Virus record (IMG/VR): IMGVR_UViG_2917849834_000006
Coordinates: 1 to 39,408 of that record
Direction: 5' to 3' (one strand)
Length of the DNA: 39,408 nt
From: a virus
Taxonomy: Duplodnaviria; Heunggongvirae; Uroviricota; Caudoviricetes
Shown piece by piece: positions 3,779 through 39,408 of this stretch. Below the pieces are notes generated by a model. The model saw only the letters and a program-made list of their open reading frames with translations, was not told where the DNA came from and ran no database searches. A program made the position numbers and the translations under genes. The first letter of the stretch is position 1. Each line of letters starts with the position of its first letter.

Positions 3779-4139
3779 TATGCTCAGCCTCCGGCGCTTT
3801 TGGCATTACTGCCCAGTGAGTGATATTGACGTTTTCAAGGTCCCCGACCTGAAATGTCCACTGCCATTCTCCGGTTTCTTTTTGCCCCCATGTGTACCAG
3901 AGAGAACGCCAGCCAATCAGCCAGCCTTCTCCGTTAGCATCAAATAACAGAACACTTTCATTTGCTGGTGGCAGTTCAGCTGACACTGGTATTATTTTGT
4001 TTTCCAGTGCCGCACATTTAGCTTCAAGCGCGTCGAATTTACGTACCAGGTACTCAGCATTTGTTTCGTTCACTTTCAGATCTCGCGGTACACATCTCCC
4101 ACGAAGAAACCCTTCCATTTCGAAAACATTCATGCGCAT
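3759..4139 (-). CDS. Hypothetical phage early protein (DUF551-like C-terminus)
   Basis: 126 aa; W-rich C-terminus …ITHWAVMPKAPE; overlapping, coupled with neighbours. Confidence 0.5.
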   Translation of the reverse strand: MRMNVFEMEGFLRGRCVPRDLKVNETNAEYLVRKFDALEAKCAALENKIIPVSAELPPANESVLLFDANGEGWLIGWRSLWYTWGQKETGEWQWTFQVGDLENVNITHWAVMPKAPEAEHNDHIYQ

Positions 4140-4666
4140 TTGCGTAACTCCGATAACTCGTTAAAACGTTCCATAAACATCCCGTAGGCATGGTCCGGTG
4201 CCAGTGGAATCACTTTGAACATATCTGTTGCCGGGATACCTTCCAGTACAGGCCAGAAAGAGCCATCATCAAGCCCGAGATCGCGGCGTTCGGTTGCCAG
4301 CATAATGAGATCGGCATATTTCACTGGCGTGCTCATAACCGGAGGTAACCCGTATTTCTCACGGATTACGGCGTCTATTTTTTCTTCCATCCGTTTATAG
4401 TCAGGAAGAAGGCGTTTCAGTGGTGCGGGGATGTCCTGGCAATACGCTTCTGTTGCATCATGCATTAACGCTTCAAAAGCAAATTCCTGATGCACCAGCT
4501 GGCTGCAAAGCACCGCATGTTGGGCGACGCTGTAGAAGTGAGAAAGATGACCGGCAAAGCGGCAGATATTTGAAAGGGAAACCGCGATATCGTTAATAAC
4601 GATGTCGTCTTTATTTATCTTGTCATAATAAAAATGCTTCCCGGAAAAAGTTTTAATAAATGACAT
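4130..4666 (-). CDS. HD-domain phosphohydrolase-like protein
   Basis: H…HD motif (AQHAVL…LMHDATEAY); likely start is the internal ATG at 4666 preceded by GGAG, rather than the track start at 4729. Confidence 0.6.
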   Translation of the reverse strand: MSFIKTFSGKHFYYDKINKDDIVINDIAVSLSNICRFAGHLSHFYSVAQHAVLCSQLVHQEFAFEALMHDATEAYCQDIPAPLKRLLPDYKRMEEKIDAVIREKYGLPPVMSTPVKYADLIMLATERRDLGLDDGSFWPVLEGIPATDMFKVIPLAPDHAYGMFMERFNELSELRKCA

Positions 4667-30932: not shown

Positions 30933-33900
30933 ATGGGTAAAGGCAGCAGTAAGGGGCATACCCCGCGCGAAGCGAAGGACAACCTCAAATCCACGCAGTT
31001 GCTGAGTGTGATCGATGCCATCAGTGAAGGGCCGGTTGAAGGTCCGGTGGATGGATTAAAAAGCGTGCTGCTGAACAGTACGCCGGTGCTGGACAATGAG
31101 GGGAATACCAACATCTCCGGCGTCACGGTGGTGTTCCGGGCAGGTGAGCAGGAGCAGTCACCGCCGGAGGGATTTGAATCCTCCGGCTCCGAGACGGTGC
31201 TGGGTACGGAAGTGAAATATGACACGCCGATCACCCGGACCATCACGTCGGCAAACATCGACCGTCTGCGCTTTACCTTCGGCGTGCAGGCACTGGTGGA
31301 AACCACCTCAAAGGGTGACCGGAATCCGTCGGAAGTCCGCCTGCTGGTTCAGATACAGCGTAATGGTGGCTGGGTGACGGAAAAAGACATCACCATTAAG
31401 GGCAAAACCACGTCGCAGTATCTGGCCTCGGTGGTGGTGGATAACCTGCCGCCGCGCCCGTTTAATATCCGGATGCGCAGGATGACGCCGGACAGCACCA
31501 CAGACCAGCTGCAGAACAAAACGCTCTGGTCGTCATACACCGAAATCATCGATGTGAAACAGTGCTACCCGAACACGGCACTGGTCGGCGTGCAGGTGGA
31601 TTCGGAGCAGTTCGGCAGCCAGCAGGTGAGTCGTAATTATCATCTGCGCGGGCGCATTCTGCAGGTGCCGTCGAACTATAACCCGCAGACGCGGCAATAC
31701 AGCGGTATCTGGGACGGAACGTTTAAGCCAGCATACAGCAACAACATGGCCTGGTGTTTGTGGGATATGCTGACCCATCCGCGCTACGGCATGGGGAAAC
31801 GTCTTGGTGCAGCAGATGTGGATAAATGGGCGCTGTATGTCATCGGCCAGAATTGCGACCAGTCGGTGCCGGACGGTTTTGGCGGCACGGAGCCGCGCAT
31901 CACCTGTAACGCTTACCTGACCACACAGCGTAAGGCGTGGGATGTGCTCAGTGATTTCTGTTCGGCGATGCGCTGTATGCCGGTATGGAACGGGCAGACG
32001 CTGACGTTCGTGCAGGACCGACCGTCGGATAAGGTGTGGACCTATAACCGCAGTAATGTGGTGATGCCGGATGATGGCGCGCCGTTCCGCTACAGCTTCA
32101 GCGCCCTGAAGGACCGCCATAATGCCGTTGAGGTGAACTGGATTGACCCGAATAACGGCTGGGAGACGGCGACAGAGCTTGTGGAGGACACGCAGGCCAT
32201 TCTCCGTTACGGTCGTAACGTCACGAAAATGGATGCTTTTGGCTGTACCAGCCGGGGGCAGGCACACCGCGCCGGGCTGTGGCTGATTAAAACGGAGCTG
32301 CTGGAAACGCAGACCGTGGACTTCAGCGTGGGCGCAGAAGGGCTGCGCCATGTACCGGGTGATGTTATTGAAATCTGCGATGATGACTATGCGGGGATCA
32401 GCATTGGCGGGCGCGTGCTGGCGGTGAACAGCCAGACCCGGACGCTGACGCTCGACCGTGAAATCACGCTGCCATCCTCCGGTACCACGCTGATAAGCCT
32501 GGTTGACGGGCAGGGGAGTCCGGTCAGCGTGGAGGTTCAGTCCGTCACCGACGGCGTGAAGGTGAAAGTGAGTCGGGTTCCTGACGGCGTTGCCGAATAC
32601 AGCGTGTGGGGGCTGAAGCTGCCGACGCTGCGCCAGCGCCTGTTCCGCTGTGTGAGTATCCGTGAGAACGATGACGGCACGTATGCCATCACTGCCGTGC
32701 AGCATGTACCGGAGAAAGAAGCCATCGTGGATAACGGGGCGCACTTTGACGGCGACCAGAGCGGAACGGTGAACGGTGTCACGCCGCCCGCGGTGCAGCA
32801 CCTGACTGCAGAAGTCACCGCAGACAGCGGGGAATACCAGGTGCTGGCGCGCTGGGACACGCCGAAGGTGGTGAAGGGGGTGAGCTTTATGCTTCGCCTG
32901 ACCGTGGCAGCGGATGACGGCAGTGAGCGGCTGGTCAGCACGGCCAGGACGACGGAAACCACATACCGCTTCAGGCAACTGGCGCTGGGGAACTACAGGC
33001 TGACAGTCCGGGCGGTAAATGCGTGGGGGCAGCAGGGGGATCCGGCGTCGGTATCGTTCCGGATTGCCGCACCGGCAGCGCCATCGCGGATTGAGCTGAC
33101 GCCGGGCTATTTTCAGATAACCGCAACGCCGCATCTTGCCGTTTATGATCCGACGGTACAGTTTGAGTTCTGGTTCTCGGAAAAGCAGATTGCGGATATC
33201 AGGCAGGTTGAAGCCAGCGCGCGTTATCTTGGTACGGCGCTGTACTGGATAGCCGCCAGTATCAATATCAAACCGGGCCATGATTATTATTTTTACATTC
33301 GCAGTGTGAACACCGTTGGCAAATCGGCATTTGTGGAGGCTGTTGGCCAGCCGAGTGATGATGCATCCGGCTATCTGGATTTTTTCAAAGGAGAGATAGG
33401 GAAAACCCATCTGGCTCAGGAGTTGTGGACGCAGATTGATAACGGTCAGCTTGCGCCTGACCTGGCTGAAATCAGGACGTCCATTACGGATGTCAGCAAT
33501 GAAATCACGCAGACCGTCAATAAGAAACTGGAAGACCAGAGTGCAGCGATCCAGCAGATACAGAAGGTTCAGGTTGATACAAATAATAACCTGAACAGCA
33601 TGTGGGCTGTGAAGCTGCAGCAGATGCAGGACGGACGCCTTTATATCGCGGGTATTGGTGCCGGTATTGAGAATACCCCTGACGGTATGCAGAGTCAGGT
33701 GCTGCTGGCGGCGGACAGGATTGCGATGATTAATCCTGCGAATGGCAATACAAAGCCGATGTTTGTTGGTCAGGGCGATCAGATATTTATGAATGAAGTG
33801 TTCCTGAAATATCTGACGGCTCCCACCATTACCAGCGGCGGTAATCCTCCGGCATTTTCCCTGACACCGGACGGGCGGCTGACGGCGAAAAATGCGGATA

Positions 33901-34415
33901 TCAGCGGTAACGTGAACGCGAACTCCGGGACGCTCAACAATGTCACGATTAATCAGAACTGCCGGATTCTGGGAAAACTGTCAGCCAACCAGATTGAAGG
34001 CGATATTGTTAAAACGGTGGGAAAAGCCTTTCCGAGAAATAGCAGTTATGCCAGCGGTACAATAACGGTCACGGTGTACGATGACCAGGCTTTTGACCGT
34101 CAGATAGTAATCCCCCCCGTTCTGTTTCGCGGTGGTAAGCATGAAAACTTCAACAGCAACAACCAACAGTCATACTGGTATTCAACCTGTAAGCTGCAGG
34201 TGCTGAAGAACGGACAGGAAATCTTTCAGCAACCCGCGACGGATGTCAGCAGGGTATTTTCATCAGTCATTGATATGCCTGCCGGACACGGCCATGTCAC
34301 CCTGACTTTCAATGTTTCTTCATATGGTGCAAATAACTGGACGCCAACGACCAGTATCAGCGACCTTCTTGTTGTCGTGATGAAGAAATCAACAGCCGGC
34401 ATCAGTATCAGTTGA
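30933..34415 (+). CDS. J: Tail tip host-specificity protein J
   Basis: 1160 aa; N-terminal and central regions closely match lambda J as recalled; C-terminal receptor-binding region present. Confidence 0.95.
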
Positions 34416-34467: not shown

Positions 34468-36531
34468 GTGAATATGGCAGTACAGATTTCAGGTGTGCTG
34501 AAAGACGGTGCAGGAAAACCGATACAGAACTGCACCATTCAGCTCAAAGCAAAACGTAACAGCACCACAGTTGTGGTGAACACGGTGGCCTCAGAAAATC
34601 CGGATGAAGCCGGACGTTACAGCATGGATGTTGAGTATGGCCAGTACAGCGTCGCCCTGCTGGTTGAAGGTTTTCCGCCTTCACATGCCGGGACCATCAC
34701 CGTGTATGAGGATTCTAAGCCGGGGACATTGAATGATTTTCTGGGCGCTGCAACAGAAGATGATGTTCGTCCGGAGGCACTGTATCGTTTTGAAAAGATG
34801 GTGGAAGAGGCGGCACGCAACGCTGAAGCCGCCTCTCAGAGCGCAGCGGCAGCAAAGAAATCAGAAACAGCAGCGGCATCGTCCAGGAACGCGGCGAAAA
34901 CATCAGAGACGAATGCAGGTAACAGCGCGAAAGCGGCAGCTTCTTCAAAAACAGCCGCACAAAATGCAGCAACAGCGGCAGAACGTTCAGAGACAAATGC
35001 CCGTGCGTCAGAGGAAGCCTCCGCAGACAGTGAAGAGGCTTCCCGCCGTAATGCAGAGTCAGCCGCTGAGAATGCCGGAATCGCCACCACAAAAGCGCGG
35101 GAGGCCGCAGCAGACGCAACAAAGGCCGGGCAGAAAAAGGATGAGGCTCTGTCGGCAGCGACACGAGCTGAAAAGGCGGCAGACCGCGCAGAAGCCGCAG
35201 CGGAAGTGACTGCAGAGCCCTATGCGAATATAGTGCCGCCGCTGCCTGATGTGTGGATACCGTTTAACGATTCACTGGATATGATTACGGGGTTTTCGCC
35301 ATCATATAAAAAGATTGTTATTGGTGACGATGAAATAACAGTGCCAGGCGACAAGATTGTTAAGTTTAAACGAGCTTCAACAGCAACATATATCAATAAG
35401 TCAGGCTCGTTTGTTGTGGCAGATGTTGATGAAGCCAGATTTGAAAAGTCTGGTTTACTGATAGAAGGGCAACGTACTAATAATTTCATTAACAGTAATG
35501 CACCAGAAGCATGGAACTTTAATAATAAACGTCTTGATGTAAACAGTAATCTCGATCCATTTGGATTCAGCTATGGTGTTCTGACGTATAAAGATTCATC
35601 TGATACCGGGCCTGTGACGCTCATTTCAACAGGAACAGGTCGGGTTATCTCTGTGGAAAATGGTGACTCTGTTACAATTTCTGCCCGATTCAAGGGAAAC
35701 GGAATCAGGGCGAGAATGCGCATATCGAAGCTGAATGATGATGGCGCAGGGAATACTTTTATAGCAGATGCGCTTCTGGATTTGAGCAATCTGACATTAA
35801 AAAGTGATGTGCTTTCGTCATCTTTCGTAGTGGAAAACAGCGGATGGATATTCTTTCAGTCAACCTATAAATCTGATTCATCACAAAATATATATGCCCG
35901 AATAGAAATGTATCAACAGGAAGGCAATGAAATTAAGGTCGGTGACAGTATATCAATGGCAACGCCTCAGGTTGAGAAAGGAACTGCTGCATCATCATTC
36001 ATCATAACAGGGGGAACACCGGCAACGCGAGCCAGTGATATTGTGACAATCCCATTAAATAAAAACTGGGTGCGAAGGCCACTGACAGTACTGACAGAGT
36101 GCAGTGTCTCATGGGACGTTATGCCAAATACCACGGGCGCAGCAAGGATATTAAATATTTCCACTACGGGAGACTCAACAGATATAGCTGACCAGAGTTA
36201 TATGTATCTTGGTTTTATCTCAAAGGGCTCAAAAGCAATCATCACGAATGGAAAGGGAACTATGGCAGAGATAAAAAGTGACATTGCTGTTTCAGGGCGA
36301 AAAAACATTATTGGCGGAAGGTTTAAAGAAGACGGGAGTCTGTCTGTAGTGGTAAATGGAAATATCGGTGGTGCATCGGTTTCGCCTTATAATGATACAA
36401 GATATCTTAATGGTTTCATGAATATAGGGGGGCAATCCTCCACCGGAGACAGGCATTTATTTGGACATGTCAGAAATCTGCGAATCTGGCACAGGGAATT
36501 GAATGACAGGCAATTAAAAGAGGCCGTATGA
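34468..36531 (+). CDS. stf: Side tail fibre protein, chimeric (lambda Stf-like N-terminus, divergent low-GC C-terminal domain)
   Basis: N-terminus MAVQISGVLKDGAGKPIQNCTIQLKAKRNSTTVVVNTV… resembles lambda Stf; Ala-rich coiled-coil middle; C-terminal ~400 aa unrelated and lower GC. Confidence 0.85.
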   Translation: MNMAVQISGVLKDGAGKPIQNCTIQLKAKRNSTTVVVNTVASENPDEAGRYSMDVEYGQYSVALLVEGFPPSHAGTITVYEDSKPGTLNDFLGAATEDDVRPEALYRFEKMVEEAARNAEAASQSAAAAKKSETAAASSRNAAKTSETNAGNSAKAAASSKTAAQNAATAAERSETNARASEEASADSEEASRRNAESAAENAGIATTKAREAAADATKAGQKKDEALSAATRAEKAADRAEAAAEVTAEPYANIVPPLPDVWIPFNDSLDMITGFSPSYKKIVIGDDEITVPGDKIVKFKRASTATYINKSGSFVVADVDEARFEKSGLLIEGQRTNNFINSNAPEAWNFNNKRLDVNSNLDPFGFSYGVLTYKDSSDTGPVTLISTGTGRVISVENGDSVTISARFKGNGIRARMRISKLNDDGAGNTFIADALLDLSNLTLKSDVLSSSFVVENSGWIFFQSTYKSDSSQNIYARIEMYQQEGNEIKVGDSISMATPQVEKGTAASSFIITGGTPATRASDIVTIPLNKNWVRRPLTVLTECSVSWDVMPNTTGAARILNISTTGDSTDIADQSYMYLGFISKGSKAIITNGKGTMAEIKSDIAVSGRKNIIGGRFKEDGSLSVVVNGNIGGASVSPYNDTRYLNGFMNIGGQSSTGDRHLFGHVRNLRIWHRELNDRQLKEAV

Positions 36532-36806
36532 AAGATTTAACTTTGAAGTTTCATGACAAACTGCAGTTTAAGGCCTTCCTGTCATCTCTTGGCTGGGCGG
36601 AAGATGAAGACCTCCAGAATAAACTGTTAGTTGATGAAATTGGTGTCACCTACACAGAAACAGGGGTAACTGAAGAGGGAGAACCTGTCTGTATCCGGAA
36701 TGACGGTTATTTTGTCAACATTCGTATTCTTGATGACTTGTTTGATGTTTCTGTATTCTCTGATTATGTCGTGGAGCTGGAAACACCGCTTCGGGAATGG
36801 AGCTGA
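36528..36806 (+). CDS. Hypothetical protein, possibly a tail fibre assembly chaperone
   Basis: 92 aa, acidic, ATGA overlap with the tail fibre gene; function inferred from position only. Confidence 0.4.
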   Translation: MKDLTLKFHDKLQFKAFLSSLGWAEDEDLQNKLLVDEIGVTYTETGVTEEGEPVCIRNDGYFVNIRILDDLFDVSVFSDYVVELETPLREWS

Positions 36807-36818
36807 AAGGAGGAAATA

Positions 36819-37104
36819 ATGGATATAAGCCCCTTACTTCATGCACTTTGTGCTGTAGCTGCGCAGATACTGGTTGGTCTTTTTACCGGAAACTGGGTTT
36901 ACGGTGCGATAGCCGGTTGTACGTTCTTCATTGCGCGTGAACACACCTAGGCAGAATATCGCTGGATTGAAATGTTCGGGCATGGCAAGCGTATGAATAT
37001 GCCGTGGTGGGGCGGTTTTGATCCACGTGCTTGGGATGTGGCAAGCCTGATGGATTTTGCGGTGCCGGTGGTAGCGTGTCTGCTGGTCTGGCTGTTTATC
37101 CGTT
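36819..37104 (+). pseudogene. Small membrane-protein ORF interrupted by an in-frame TAG (amber) after codon 43
   Basis: Strong RBS AAGGAGG before the ATG at 36819; MDISPLLHALCAVAAQILVGLFTGNWVYGAIAGCTFFIAREHT-TAG-AEYRWIEMFGHGKRMNMPWWGGFDPRAWDVASLMDFAVPVVACLLVWLFIR; frame stays protein-like after the stop. Confidence 0.45.
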
Positions 37105-37112
37105 AAACATAA

Positions 37113-37148
37113 AAAGCCGCAGCAACTTGTCATGGCAGGATACTGCGG
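37113..37148 (-). terminator. Hairpin between convergent genes, candidate terminator of the RT operon
   Basis: AGCCGCAG … CTGCGGCT 8-bp stem with 20-nt loop; T-rich tract follows on the minus strand. Confidence 0.45.
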
Positions 37149-37213
37149 CTGGTTTGTGAGTTTAAATAGTGTGTTTATTACGGTATATTTAAAGGACTTA
37201 ATGGATTACATAT

Positions 37214-38590
37214 CTATGATATTCCTGAAATATCCTCTTCAAGTTCTTTTACTGATTTCGCAATTTTAAATTTAAATTTCCTCTCTATTTCACTATTGCT
37301 AAGTTTTTTTTCCTTCTCTTTCCCTATCCACATAGAAACAAGTTCTCGTTTCTGAGATATATGTAGATTGTCAAAGTTAGGTATGTATTTAAAAGTCTCC
37401 GCTCTACCTCTGCGGAGTTCATAGAAAGTTTTAATCAAAGACTTTGGTTTTATTTCTGATAAAAGGCCGAATCGGCGGATAAGATTATTGATAGTATGAT
37501 TAACAGAGCGAAGTTGAGCTGTTGAGGTTATTTGTGAGAAGTACGATACCCATCCCAATCGTTTACCTTCAAACACACATCCCGTAATTCTGAGATTTAG
37601 TTTCCACTGACAATATGCAACAGCTCGTTCTTTATCGCGCTTACTTTTAGCTTGTAGTAGAGCGTGCCTATATGCAGTAAAAATTTTTGCTAAGGATGAC
37701 TCAAATCTAAGAATGCTCTCATGTTTTATCAATAATTCTCGATTTTCTATGTGGTATCCCAAAAAGTTAAAACTTTCATCCAAGCTGCCTACTTTGGATT
37801 TTGAGTTCTCTTCATTTAATGGATGTGGGTTTAAATTTAATGATTGAAGCTTATCAATGATATGAGATGTTATTTTTGTTGCTTGATATTTGGGCGTTAA
37901 AATAAGAATGTCATCAACGTATCGCATGTACCATATGCCATGCATTTTATTGATTTCATCATCGAAATTAGATAGTGATATTTCAGCTAAAATGTTTGAT
38001 ATCGCTAATCCCTGAGGTACTCCTCTGGTATTATTAGGGATACCTTTGCTTCCTGTACTTCCACTTACAGTAGGTACGATTAATGATGATGTTATTAACT
38101 GTCTAATTTCTTTTTTTCTAATCTTATTTTTTATTGCATTAAATATCAATTTATGTTCAATTGAAGGATAGAAACTTTTAAGATCTATTTTTGCATATTC
38201 AGCATATAGACTGCAGTTTAATGCTTCTTTCAATGAGTCAATTACTGTATGTGGTAGTTTTAATCTGGAATTAGGATATATTTCCGTAAGGCATTCACAG
38301 AGAGCCCTAAGAGTAATTCTGTCCCTAGCAGTTGGTATGGAAATCTGTCTGGGGGTAGAGTTAGCCCCTTTAGATATTAATTTTTCTTTATATGCTGTAA
38401 ATTTATAATTGCCAGAATTAACCTTTTCAAAAATGAAAGTGATCTCATTGTTTATTGTTAAATCAAGTTTTGATGGGCGAATCCGATCTATGCCAATCGC
38501 TCCTGATTCTTTGATTTTTTCAGTGTATACTTTTAGAAGGTTTTTTTTCGAGAATGACTTTTTAAAAATTCTACTTGCAGTCATAGTCAA
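37214..38590 (-). CDS. Reverse transcriptase (prokaryotic defence-type; retron/Abi/DRT-like, family unassigned)
   Basis: RT motifs read in translation: PRQISIPTARDRITLRAL, IDLKSFYPSI, GVPQGLAISNILAEI, WYMRYVDDILIL (YVDD catalytic box), FLGYHI; C-terminal extension of about 150 aa; about 30% GC; track start is TTG, an ATG lies at 38584. Confidence 0.9.
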   Translation of the reverse strand: MTMTASRIFKKSFSKKNLLKVYTEKIKESGAIGIDRIRPSKLDLTINNEITFIFEKVNSGNYKFTAYKEKLISKGANSTPRQISIPTARDRITLRALCECLTEIYPNSRLKLPHTVIDSLKEALNCSLYAEYAKIDLKSFYPSIEHKLIFNAIKNKIRKKEIRQLITSSLIVPTVSGSTGSKGIPNNTRGVPQGLAISNILAEISLSNFDDEINKMHGIWYMRYVDDILILTPKYQATKITSHIIDKLQSLNLNPHPLNEENSKSKVGSLDESFNFLGYHIENRELLIKHESILRFESSLAKIFTAYRHALLQAKSKRDKERAVAYCQWKLNLRITGCVFEGKRLGWVSYFSQITSTAQLRSVNHTINNLIRRFGLLSEIKPKSLIKTFYELRRGRAETFKYIPNFDNLHISQKRELVSMWIGKEKEKKLSNSEIERKFKFKIAKSVKELEEDISGIS

Positions 38591-39113
38591 TCCAAAGATA
38601 TATTAATGGTAGTATATAAAGTGCGGCAGTAATAAATATTCGAAGTAATATCCATAAATTAACAATTATTTTTTCTTTTTGTGTGGGGAGCCTCGTCGTA
38701 AGTCCAACTTGAGTTACCCTTGAAACTTTATCATCTATCTCACGATGATTCTCAACCTCATTGAGCAAATTAAAATATTTTTCTTTCTGTTCAGGAGTTA
38801 ATTGTTGGCCGTTGGTAATGTCAAAATAGAGTCGCTGTAGTGCAATATAATTCCTTCTCATGGCTATTGCTCGACCACGAAAATCTAGGTTAGATACGAT
38901 CAGAGAAATACCTAGTAGAGCCACTGAAAGTATCGCTGCAACGATATCTGTATTATCTCCTAGAACTTTTGGAAATCGTAACGTTACAATTGAAAGCACC
39001 GCACTCAATATAGCATACCAAACGAGGATTAATTGAGAGTGTTTTTCAAGCCATTCTAGTCGATGGTGCGCTTGGATACGGGCTTTATATGTAAACCAAA
39101 TATTGTCATGCAT
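38571..39113 (-). CDS. Small multi-pass membrane protein co-transcribed upstream of the RT (candidate effector)
   Basis: 180 aa; three hydrophobic helices (about residues 27-45, 57-77, 152-176) around a charged middle region; AGGA RBS; ends 8 nt before the RT ATG; same low GC. Confidence 0.7.
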   Translation of the reverse strand: MHDNIWFTYKARIQAHHRLEWLEKHSQLILVWYAILSAVLSIVTLRFPKVLGDNTDIVAAILSVALLGISLIVSNLDFRGRAIAMRRNYIALQRLYFDITNGQQLTPEQKEKYFNLLNEVENHREIDDKVSRVTQVGLTTRLPTQKEKIIVNLWILLRIFITAALYILPLIYLWIDYDCK

Positions 39114-39134
39114 AAAAGATCCTTTTTTAAAAGC

Positions 39135-39275
39135 GGAAGGGGCAGGATATATTGGAACCGTTGAACATCCTGCCCGGCAGGATCAGTGAGCATAAGCTCA
39201 ACAGTAAAATATTACTGTTCATTATCAGAGCCGCCCTTGCATGCGCAAGAGGAAAAACCTGCCCCATCCTTTTGA
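39135..39275 (-). ncRNA. Candidate structured non-coding RNA upstream of the membrane-protein/RT operon (possible msr-msd-like element)
   Basis: Nested inverted repeats: GGGCAGGAT (39140-39148) with ATCCTGCCC (39167-39175); GGAAGGGGCAGG (39135-39146) with CCTGCCCCATCC (39258-39269); small hairpins CTTGC-gcat-GCAAG and CAGTAA-tatt-TTACTG; no ORF. Confidence 0.25.
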
Positions 39276-39408
39276 ATTATTACAATTTAATGATCTTAAA
39301 GTCAATACAAGTGAATGGTGTCCAGGGATGATGAACTTAATGAACAAACCACTCGTCAGCAGACTCCCAAGTATCTTTCAGAGTTTCCTGAACAACAGTT
39401 TTAGCTGA

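Follow-up and report, generated by a model that had tools for sequence, protein, structure and literature searches.

Introduction

The best-described recurrent amber mutations of the type considered here are the lacI hotspots A6, A15 and A34 of Coulondre, Miller, Farabaugh and Gilbert (1978). Each is a G:C to A:T transition affecting the second C of the pentamer CCAGG, and such changes are about 10-fold over-represented (PMC12606429, reviewing Coulondre et al. 1978). The hotspots are absent without cytosine methylation, and the introduction of a new site introduces a new hotspot (PMC12606429). The T:G mismatch in CTWGG/CCWGG is normally corrected by very-short-patch (Vsr) repair (PMC2715241). 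The locus described in the present study shares with the lacI hotspots the pentamer, the affected base, the transition and the resulting change of a Gln codon CAG to TAG, and in both cases the change recurs at one site. lacI, however, is a laboratory reporter, whereas the gene analyzed here is a natural prophage gene from wild isolates, for which we infer methylation, Dcm dependence and rate elevation.

For the gene itself, an intact orthologue is known from phage 21 (CPT_21_24, UMO75439.1, annotated as "putative membrane protein"; phrog_1443), which comprises 97 codons with CAG at codon 44. The N-terminal halves of the two genes are near-identical, with one differing residue (V27 in our sequence, A27 in phage 21), whereas the C-terminal tail reads LLVNRG in phage 21 and LFIR in our sequence. 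Both genes show the same synteny, with a side tail fibre gene followed by a 92-aa gene, the small gene and variable cargo. The same lesion is already known from other genomes, in which RefSeq flags an internal stop. The pseudogenes FH07_RS06995 (strain ST648), EGY17_RS16205 (FDAARGOS_497) and AOY94_RS11390 (A41), designated "hypothetical protein, internal stop", belong to the same family and carry TAG at the same codon. They differ from our sequence at 21 other nucleotides, at both their 5′ and 3′ ends and in the tail-fibre module upstream, and they are located at a DLP12-like site by appY/ompT rather than by a reverse transcriptase (RT)-SLATT cassette.

In-frame TAG codons at Gln positions are also found in gut phages that have recoded TAG to Gln. 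These phages carry suppressor tRNAs, contain many in-frame TAGs in their late genes and avoid TAG as a terminator. The locus studied here resembles them in having an in-frame TAG where relatives have Gln, but all three of these traits were tested and are absent.

Here we analyzed a DNA stretch of 39,408 nt from a member of the Caudoviricetes (IMG/VR record IMGVR_UViG_2917849834_000006), hereafter called the window, which originates from contig PDIA01000063.1 of GCA_004745155.1, a contig recorded in 4 samples. The original prediction, made from the sequence alone, had proposed a well-initiated small membrane-protein gene interrupted by an amber codon and had offered two alternatives, a recent nonsense pseudogene or a gene dependent on amber suppression or readthrough. 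The best explanation, to which we assign as a whole a probability of roughly 0.8, is that a conserved gene for a small inner-membrane protein is present here as a recent nonsense (loss-of-function) allele. It is almost certain that a nonsense change has hit a gene that is otherwise intact.

Results and Discussion

Gene layout and prophage context

The window represents a lambdoid prophage, carrying an integrase gene (386-1606) and genes for an S24 (CI-type) repressor, Ash, KilA-N, DUF968 and the Q antiterminator. The late operon is uninterrupted and ends with J (30933-34415) followed by a 687-aa side tail fibre, and the small gene is the last conserved gene of this lambdoid late (tail-fibre) operon. 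The same gene order is annotated in phage 21 (CPT_21_22 to CPT_21_24), mEp460 and E. coli MS21324. The predicted position of the gene at the border between the tail module and the RT cassette is correct. The features of the locus are as follows.

36528..36806, plus strand: upstream 92-aa gene (phrog_1361), the usual syntenic partner, with its TGA at 36804-36806
36807..36813, plus strand: Shine-Dalgarno sequence AAGGAGG, read from the sequence, 5 nt upstream of the ATG
36819..36950, plus strand: 5′ part of the gene, 43 sense codons and the amber codon, encoding helix 1 and the first two-thirds of helix 2
36951..37106, plus strand: untranslated 3′ remainder of the gene, codons 45-95 and TAA, with the rest of the invariant motif, the loop GKR.NMPWWGGFD and helix 3
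36972..37106, plus strand: 44-codon ORF starting at Met52, called separately by gene callers, a possible but weak reinitiation product

Translation would start at the ATG at 36819-36821, for which a duplex of -11.6 kcal/mol between the Shine-Dalgarno and anti-Shine-Dalgarno sequences is predicted; a ribosome-binding site is annotated for the phage 21 orthologue as well and is common to the window gene. The 43-codon product, MDISPLLHALCAVAAQILVGLFTGNWVYGAIAGCTFFIAREHT, ends at the amber TAG at codon 44 (36948-36950), and the frame past this TAG remains open for 51 codons until the TAA at 37104-37106. The proposed AAGGAGG ribosome-binding site, the ATG, the TAG after 43 codons and the roughly 50 further open codons can thus all be read in the sequence. 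By itself, a run of 51 open codons says little (p about 0.086, assuming uniform composition), and for coding past the stop it is therefore the match to phrog_1443, the gapless orthologues and the pN/pS values that are decisive. An antisense ORF of 99 codons (36834-37133, minus strand) spans the whole gene; pN/pS in the plus frame and homology indicate that, of the two, the plus strand is the coding strand.

When codon 44 was repaired to Q, the resulting 95-aa product matched phrog_1443 with E 4.6e-57, residues 1-94 aligning with positions 1-94 of the 97 profile positions, and phage 21 CPT_21_24 is the intact orthologue of the window gene. A functional member of the family should have an uninterrupted ORF of ~95-100 codons with an intact REHTQAEYRWI motif, in place of which the window allele has TAG at codon 44. 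Judged by its sequence, the window gene is consequently placed in the family by descent, as a pseudogene. The gene was found in 53 phage records. Of 5426 complete E. coli genomes, 1907 carry it, the median copy number being two, and homologue clusters (n=574) reach Salmonella, Citrobacter, Enterobacter, Leclercia, Aeromonas and Comamonas.

Neither a Pfam domain nor an informative name was present among the 574 homologue clusters. Searches of Pfam, NCBIfam and PADLOC for a function of the intact protein gave nothing significant, a PDB sequence search with the intact protein yielded no match, and the best hit of Foldseek against PDB and BFVD had an E value of 0.48. An Rfam-type RNA family search of positions 36000-39408 gave no hit at E 0.1 or below. 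With low confidence, we would guess that the intact protein is an accessory protein of the inner membrane, of the kind involved in lysogenic conversion or exclusion, and not a virion part, based on its three hydrophobic helices, its position at the operon end beside a cargo hotspot and the persistence of null alleles in an otherwise intact-looking prophage.

The lesion at codon 44

Codon 44 is CAG (Gln) in all four annotated orthologues (phage 21, mEp460, MS21324 and PhiR11_1) and in 80 of the 80 best IMG/VR loci. The intact orthologues of 95-97 aa align gap-free through the stop position and none of them ends there, so that the comparison of orthologues suggested with the original prediction indeed returned a sense codon. 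In alignments of 32 and 43 homologues, including those from Salmonella, Citrobacter, Aeromonas and Comamonas, Q44 is invariant down to 55-58% identity, as are the neighbouring residues R40, E41, T43, A45, E46, Y47, R48, W49 and I50, which yields the invariant motif REHTQAEYRWI around Q44.

The structure was modelled on an intact homologue with 92% identity, standing in for the repaired window sequence. The AlphaFold model is confident (pLDDT 92) and contains three helices (4-23, 26-52 and 74-96); the prediction of two hydrophobic helices was thus roughly right. The stop is located halfway along helix 2, so that helix 3 is lost. Since the 43-residue product is without most of the invariant motif, which is broken between REHT and QAEYRWI, and without the conserved loop and helix 3, it is most likely non-functional.

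Analysis of 41 distinct intact haplotypes resulted in pN/pS values of 0.23 for codons 1-43, 0.16 for codons 45-94 and 0.011 for the core codons 36-70. This purifying selection in relatives bears out the assumption that the frame downstream of the stop is conserved as protein. The window allele itself shows two private changes in 282 nt, the nonsense mutation and one synonymous change in codon 13, and the absence of decay past the stop argues for a recent lesion. The CAG orthologues, the purifying selection, the two private changes and the RefSeq annotation of an internal stop all support the recent nonsense pseudogene among the two alternatives offered originally. We conclude that the gene is an ordinary recent nonsense pseudogene at a known hotspot, with no special decoding system. 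The allele may be leaky rather than fully null, as Gln inserted by a low level of natural readthrough at UAG would give the wild-type protein again.

A Dcm site as probable mutational hotspot

The site of the change overlaps a Dcm recognition pentamer.

36947..36951, plus strand: CTAGG, mutated Dcm site, which is CCAGG in all intact relatives; T36948, the former inner C, is the first base of codon 44

The wild-type context ACC-CAG-GCA contains the Dcm pentamer CCAGG, and the changed base is its inner C (C-to-T). In the proposed mechanism, which also underlies the lacI amber hotspots, 5-methylcytosine at the inner C of CCAGG would deaminate spontaneously to T and escape Vsr repair. Methylation and deamination are deduced here from the sequence context, the host genes dcm and vsr lying outside the window, and no cytosine methyltransferase was present among the 10 early-region window proteins scanned. 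Dcm-linked deamination is the probable cause of the lesion. Such a hotspot would be built into every E. coli copy of the gene, which would account for the independent origin of the same TAG on several prophage backgrounds, and loss of the gene would be tolerated because it is accessory and often present in several copies per genome.

The distribution of the TAG allele was surveyed with a 41-nt megablast query centred on the T with 20 nt on each side, so that any exact 28-mer seed must span the T. TAG was found in 38 complete E. coli genomes (of 1907 carrying the gene), which mostly represent one clone, and the exact TAG string was also present in one IMG/VR contig and four metagenome contigs. 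No exact TAG-bearing match was obtained among the GTDB species representatives. The TAG alleles fall on the following backgrounds.

ST648-type TAG: almost all of the 38 complete genomes, as well as the one contig from IMG/VR and the four from metagenomes; identical over 282 nt, apart from the stop, to the CAG alleles at loci L088 and L091
Phage-21/sitABCD-type TAG: loci L095 and L096; L095 shows 0 other differences in 282 nt from the CAG allele at locus L014 and others
Window TAG allele: this window only; the nearest CAG alleles (L013, MS21324) differ at 10 other sites, with no exact CAG parent in the sample

A CAT-type TAG allele did not occur in the complete E. coli genomes and exists in draft and Logan assemblies. 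The window allele is separated from the ST648 type by 21 other sites and from the phage-21 type by 11. Among these differences are those 4 nt upstream of the T (position 126) with respect to the phage-21 type and 20 nt downstream (position 150) with respect to the ST648 type, which limits any shared recombination tract to 23 nt or less. The same change thus recurs on at least three haplotype backgrounds, two of them with exact CAG parents, and the simplest reading is that C-to-T events at a single hotspot occurred independently. In the 84 sampled alleles no further premature stop was detected, a comparison that is biased because the TAG carriers came from a search aimed at the site. The survey was directed at codon 44 alone and does not speak to over-representation among all null mutations of the gene.

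Among the 30 listed TAG genomes, only A41 deviates from the ST648 type, and in the two genomes inspected the ST648-type TAG allele adjoins appY/ompT. RefSeq annotates the lesion as "internal stop" in all three of the TAG-carrying complete genomes inspected (of 38). The TAG-carrying genomes listed, for example strain ST648, ECONIH1 and FDAARGOS_497, harbour 3-6 copies of the conserved core, and this redundancy may relax selection in those genomes. The A41 copy (NZ_CP028735.1, about 3961-4185; locus L006) has the same TAG, and its first ~30 codons have given way to unrelated sequence; it is a further-decayed version of the gene. Genes for a manganese catalase and ferritin-like proteins and sitD are located downstream of this copy.

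The mechanism is a textbook one and the prophage gene is dispensable, so the finding carries little weight for biology at large. It provides, nevertheless, a clean natural example of a lacI-type Dcm amber hotspot recurring in wild prophage populations, and it suggests that the phrog_1443 gene is dispensable for keeping the lysogen.

Alternative explanations

As methylated motifs are involved, the TAG might be a sequencing or base-calling artefact at a Dcm-methylated CCWGG site of a genome that really carries CAG. Nanopore base-calling is known to produce modification-induced errors at methylated motifs including CCWGG when the model is untrained on them (PMC11610603), and "alleles" with a -1 frameshift occur at the same site in indel-rich assemblies. 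Nevertheless, an independent Logan assembly of SRR6148340 is identical to the NCBI assembly at all 4298 nt compared, including the TAG, the contig has been recorded in 4 samples, and the exact 43-aa product is on record from both GCA_004745155.1 and Logan SRR6148340. The 89 other CCWGG sites in the window are intact and none of its late genes is broken, which makes a systematic miscall at the methylation motif unlikely. Moreover, the same substitution is present in 38 complete genomes of many laboratories, 4 metagenome contigs and a viral contig, and we consider an artefact very improbable. A different question is whether the TAG alleles go back to a single ancestral allele that recombination carried from prophage to prophage. 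Mosaicism is pronounced in lambdoid prophages, alleles hardly differ in the core around codon 44, and short conversion tracts leave no trace. For two of the TAG types, however, there are CAG alleles that match them at all 281 other sites compared, and a tract shared between the window and the other types could not exceed the 23 nt given above. A single origin is therefore unlikely, and recurrent mutation at the hotspot is preferred.

The gene might still be functional if the TAG were decoded as Gln by a supE-type tRNA-Gln or a near-cognate tRNA-Gln, as envisaged in the second alternative of the original prediction. The lost residue would fit, since supE and near-cognate UAG decoding by tRNA-Gln insert Gln, and the downstream half is undecayed, the only other private change in the gene being synonymous. 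This lack of decay is, however, equally well explained by recency. In addition, ARAGORN found 0 tRNA genes in the 39.4 kb window, and of its 41 long ORFs, 5 use TAG as a true terminator, among them the neighbouring RT and SLATT genes. All 84 other alleles sampled have CAG in place of the stop, which argues against a conserved regulatory feature, and the A41 copy, combining the same TAG with a 5′ truncation, looks like ongoing decay. Dependence on suppression or readthrough is consequently quite unlikely. The missing tRNA genes, the use of TAG as terminator and the unconserved stop also led us to reject recoding and programmed readthrough, as did the finding that no other conserved gene of the window contains an in-frame TAG, the late genes being uninterrupted. 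A split gene, in which translation terminates at the TAG and reinitiates at ATG 36972 (Met52) and the 43-aa and 44-aa halves assemble, could be proposed as well, given that this ATG lies 21 nt past the stop and that the 44-46-aa ORF has been called as a gene on hundreds of contigs and forms a PHROG of its own (phrog_34165). Against this, the Shine-Dalgarno interaction of the Met52 start reaches -3.1 kcal/mol compared to -11.6 kcal/mol for the main start, the break falls inside the invariant motif and helix 2 with residues 44-51 (QAEYRWIE) lost from both pieces, and phrog_34165 appears to exist because gene callers split the pseudogene; we give this explanation hardly any weight. It is likewise extremely improbable that the Dcm site within the T-Q-A codons serves as a two-way mutational on/off switch, a contingency-like polymorphism under selection. 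Vsr very-short-patch repair converts CTWGG back to CCWGG at T:G mispairs, so that deamination of CCAGG to CTAGG would turn the gene off and Vsr repair would favour turning it on again. The evidence that bears on such a switch consists of the recurrent "off" events. The preferred reading remains a recent loss-of-function allele arising at a Dcm hotspot.

Database artefacts at the same site

Three database artefacts were exposed in the course of the analysis. The 43-aa database proteins P0003, P0005, P0029 and P0030, which show other N-terminal haplotypes, were considered as independent TAG alleles and rejected, since 8 of the 10 P0003 and P0029 loci are contigs ending at codon 43/44. These draft and metagenome contigs (L097-L104) stop exactly at this position, with CCC or CCCA as the last bases, which leaves L095 and L096 as the TAG alleles among the P0003 and P0029 loci. 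The contig ends are presumably due to the multi-copy core repeat (median 2 copies per genome), which breaks short-read assemblies.

Products of a -1 frameshift (ACC-AGG for ACC-CAG-G; L105-L110) were also dismissed as further hits, as the respective assemblies show 1.5-2.8 gap openings per kb, whereas the TAG loci have 0-0.5. In the same assemblies the sit and tail-fibre genes nearby are broken up, and the -1 frameshift "alleles" are probably long-read artefacts from indel-prone assemblies. A putative +1 frameshift product (P0002) is present at the same CCC run. Finally, phrog_34165, which comprises 46 positions, matches only the C-terminal 44-46-aa piece of the gene (E 8.3e-33) and is apparently a "family" that goes back to gene calls splitting the pseudogene.

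Downstream boundary and cargo

The 3′ border of the gene is followed by a hairpin.

37115..37150, both strands: stem-loop with -23.5 kcal/mol and z -3.45 on the plus strand and -19.5 kcal/mol and z -3.10 on the minus strand

This hairpin separates the convergent late operon and RT cassette, has a U-run after it on the minus strand and is likely to act as a bidirectional terminator. It is conserved in relatives with other cargo, namely MS21324, mEp460 and PhiR11_1. A simple terminator scan had skipped it because of its long loop. As this terminator hairpin is all that lies 3′ of the small gene, no downstream late gene is exposed to polarity.

The point at which homology ends varies between relatives, from ~10 to 55 nt past the stop codon (37096 to about 37160 in the window), and the cargo beyond the gene differs as follows.

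Phage 21: sitABCD
mEp460: dinI and int
ST648: tail-fibre-assembly fragment and appY (appY/ompT)
Window: UG17 reverse transcriptase and SLATT cassette, then dinI

Comparison of the loci L001, L002, L003 and L007 marks the region 37096-37213 as a putative cargo-insertion hotspot. The window carries at 37214-39113 (minus strand) a two-gene defence cassette, inserted between the end of the late operon and dinI. It encodes a 458-aa reverse transcriptase (PADLOC RT_UG17, E 1.9e-158) and, upstream of and overlapping the RT gene, a 180-aa protein assigned to RTasSLATT/Pfam SLATT_5 (E 1e-56). Both genes of the cassette terminate in TAG.
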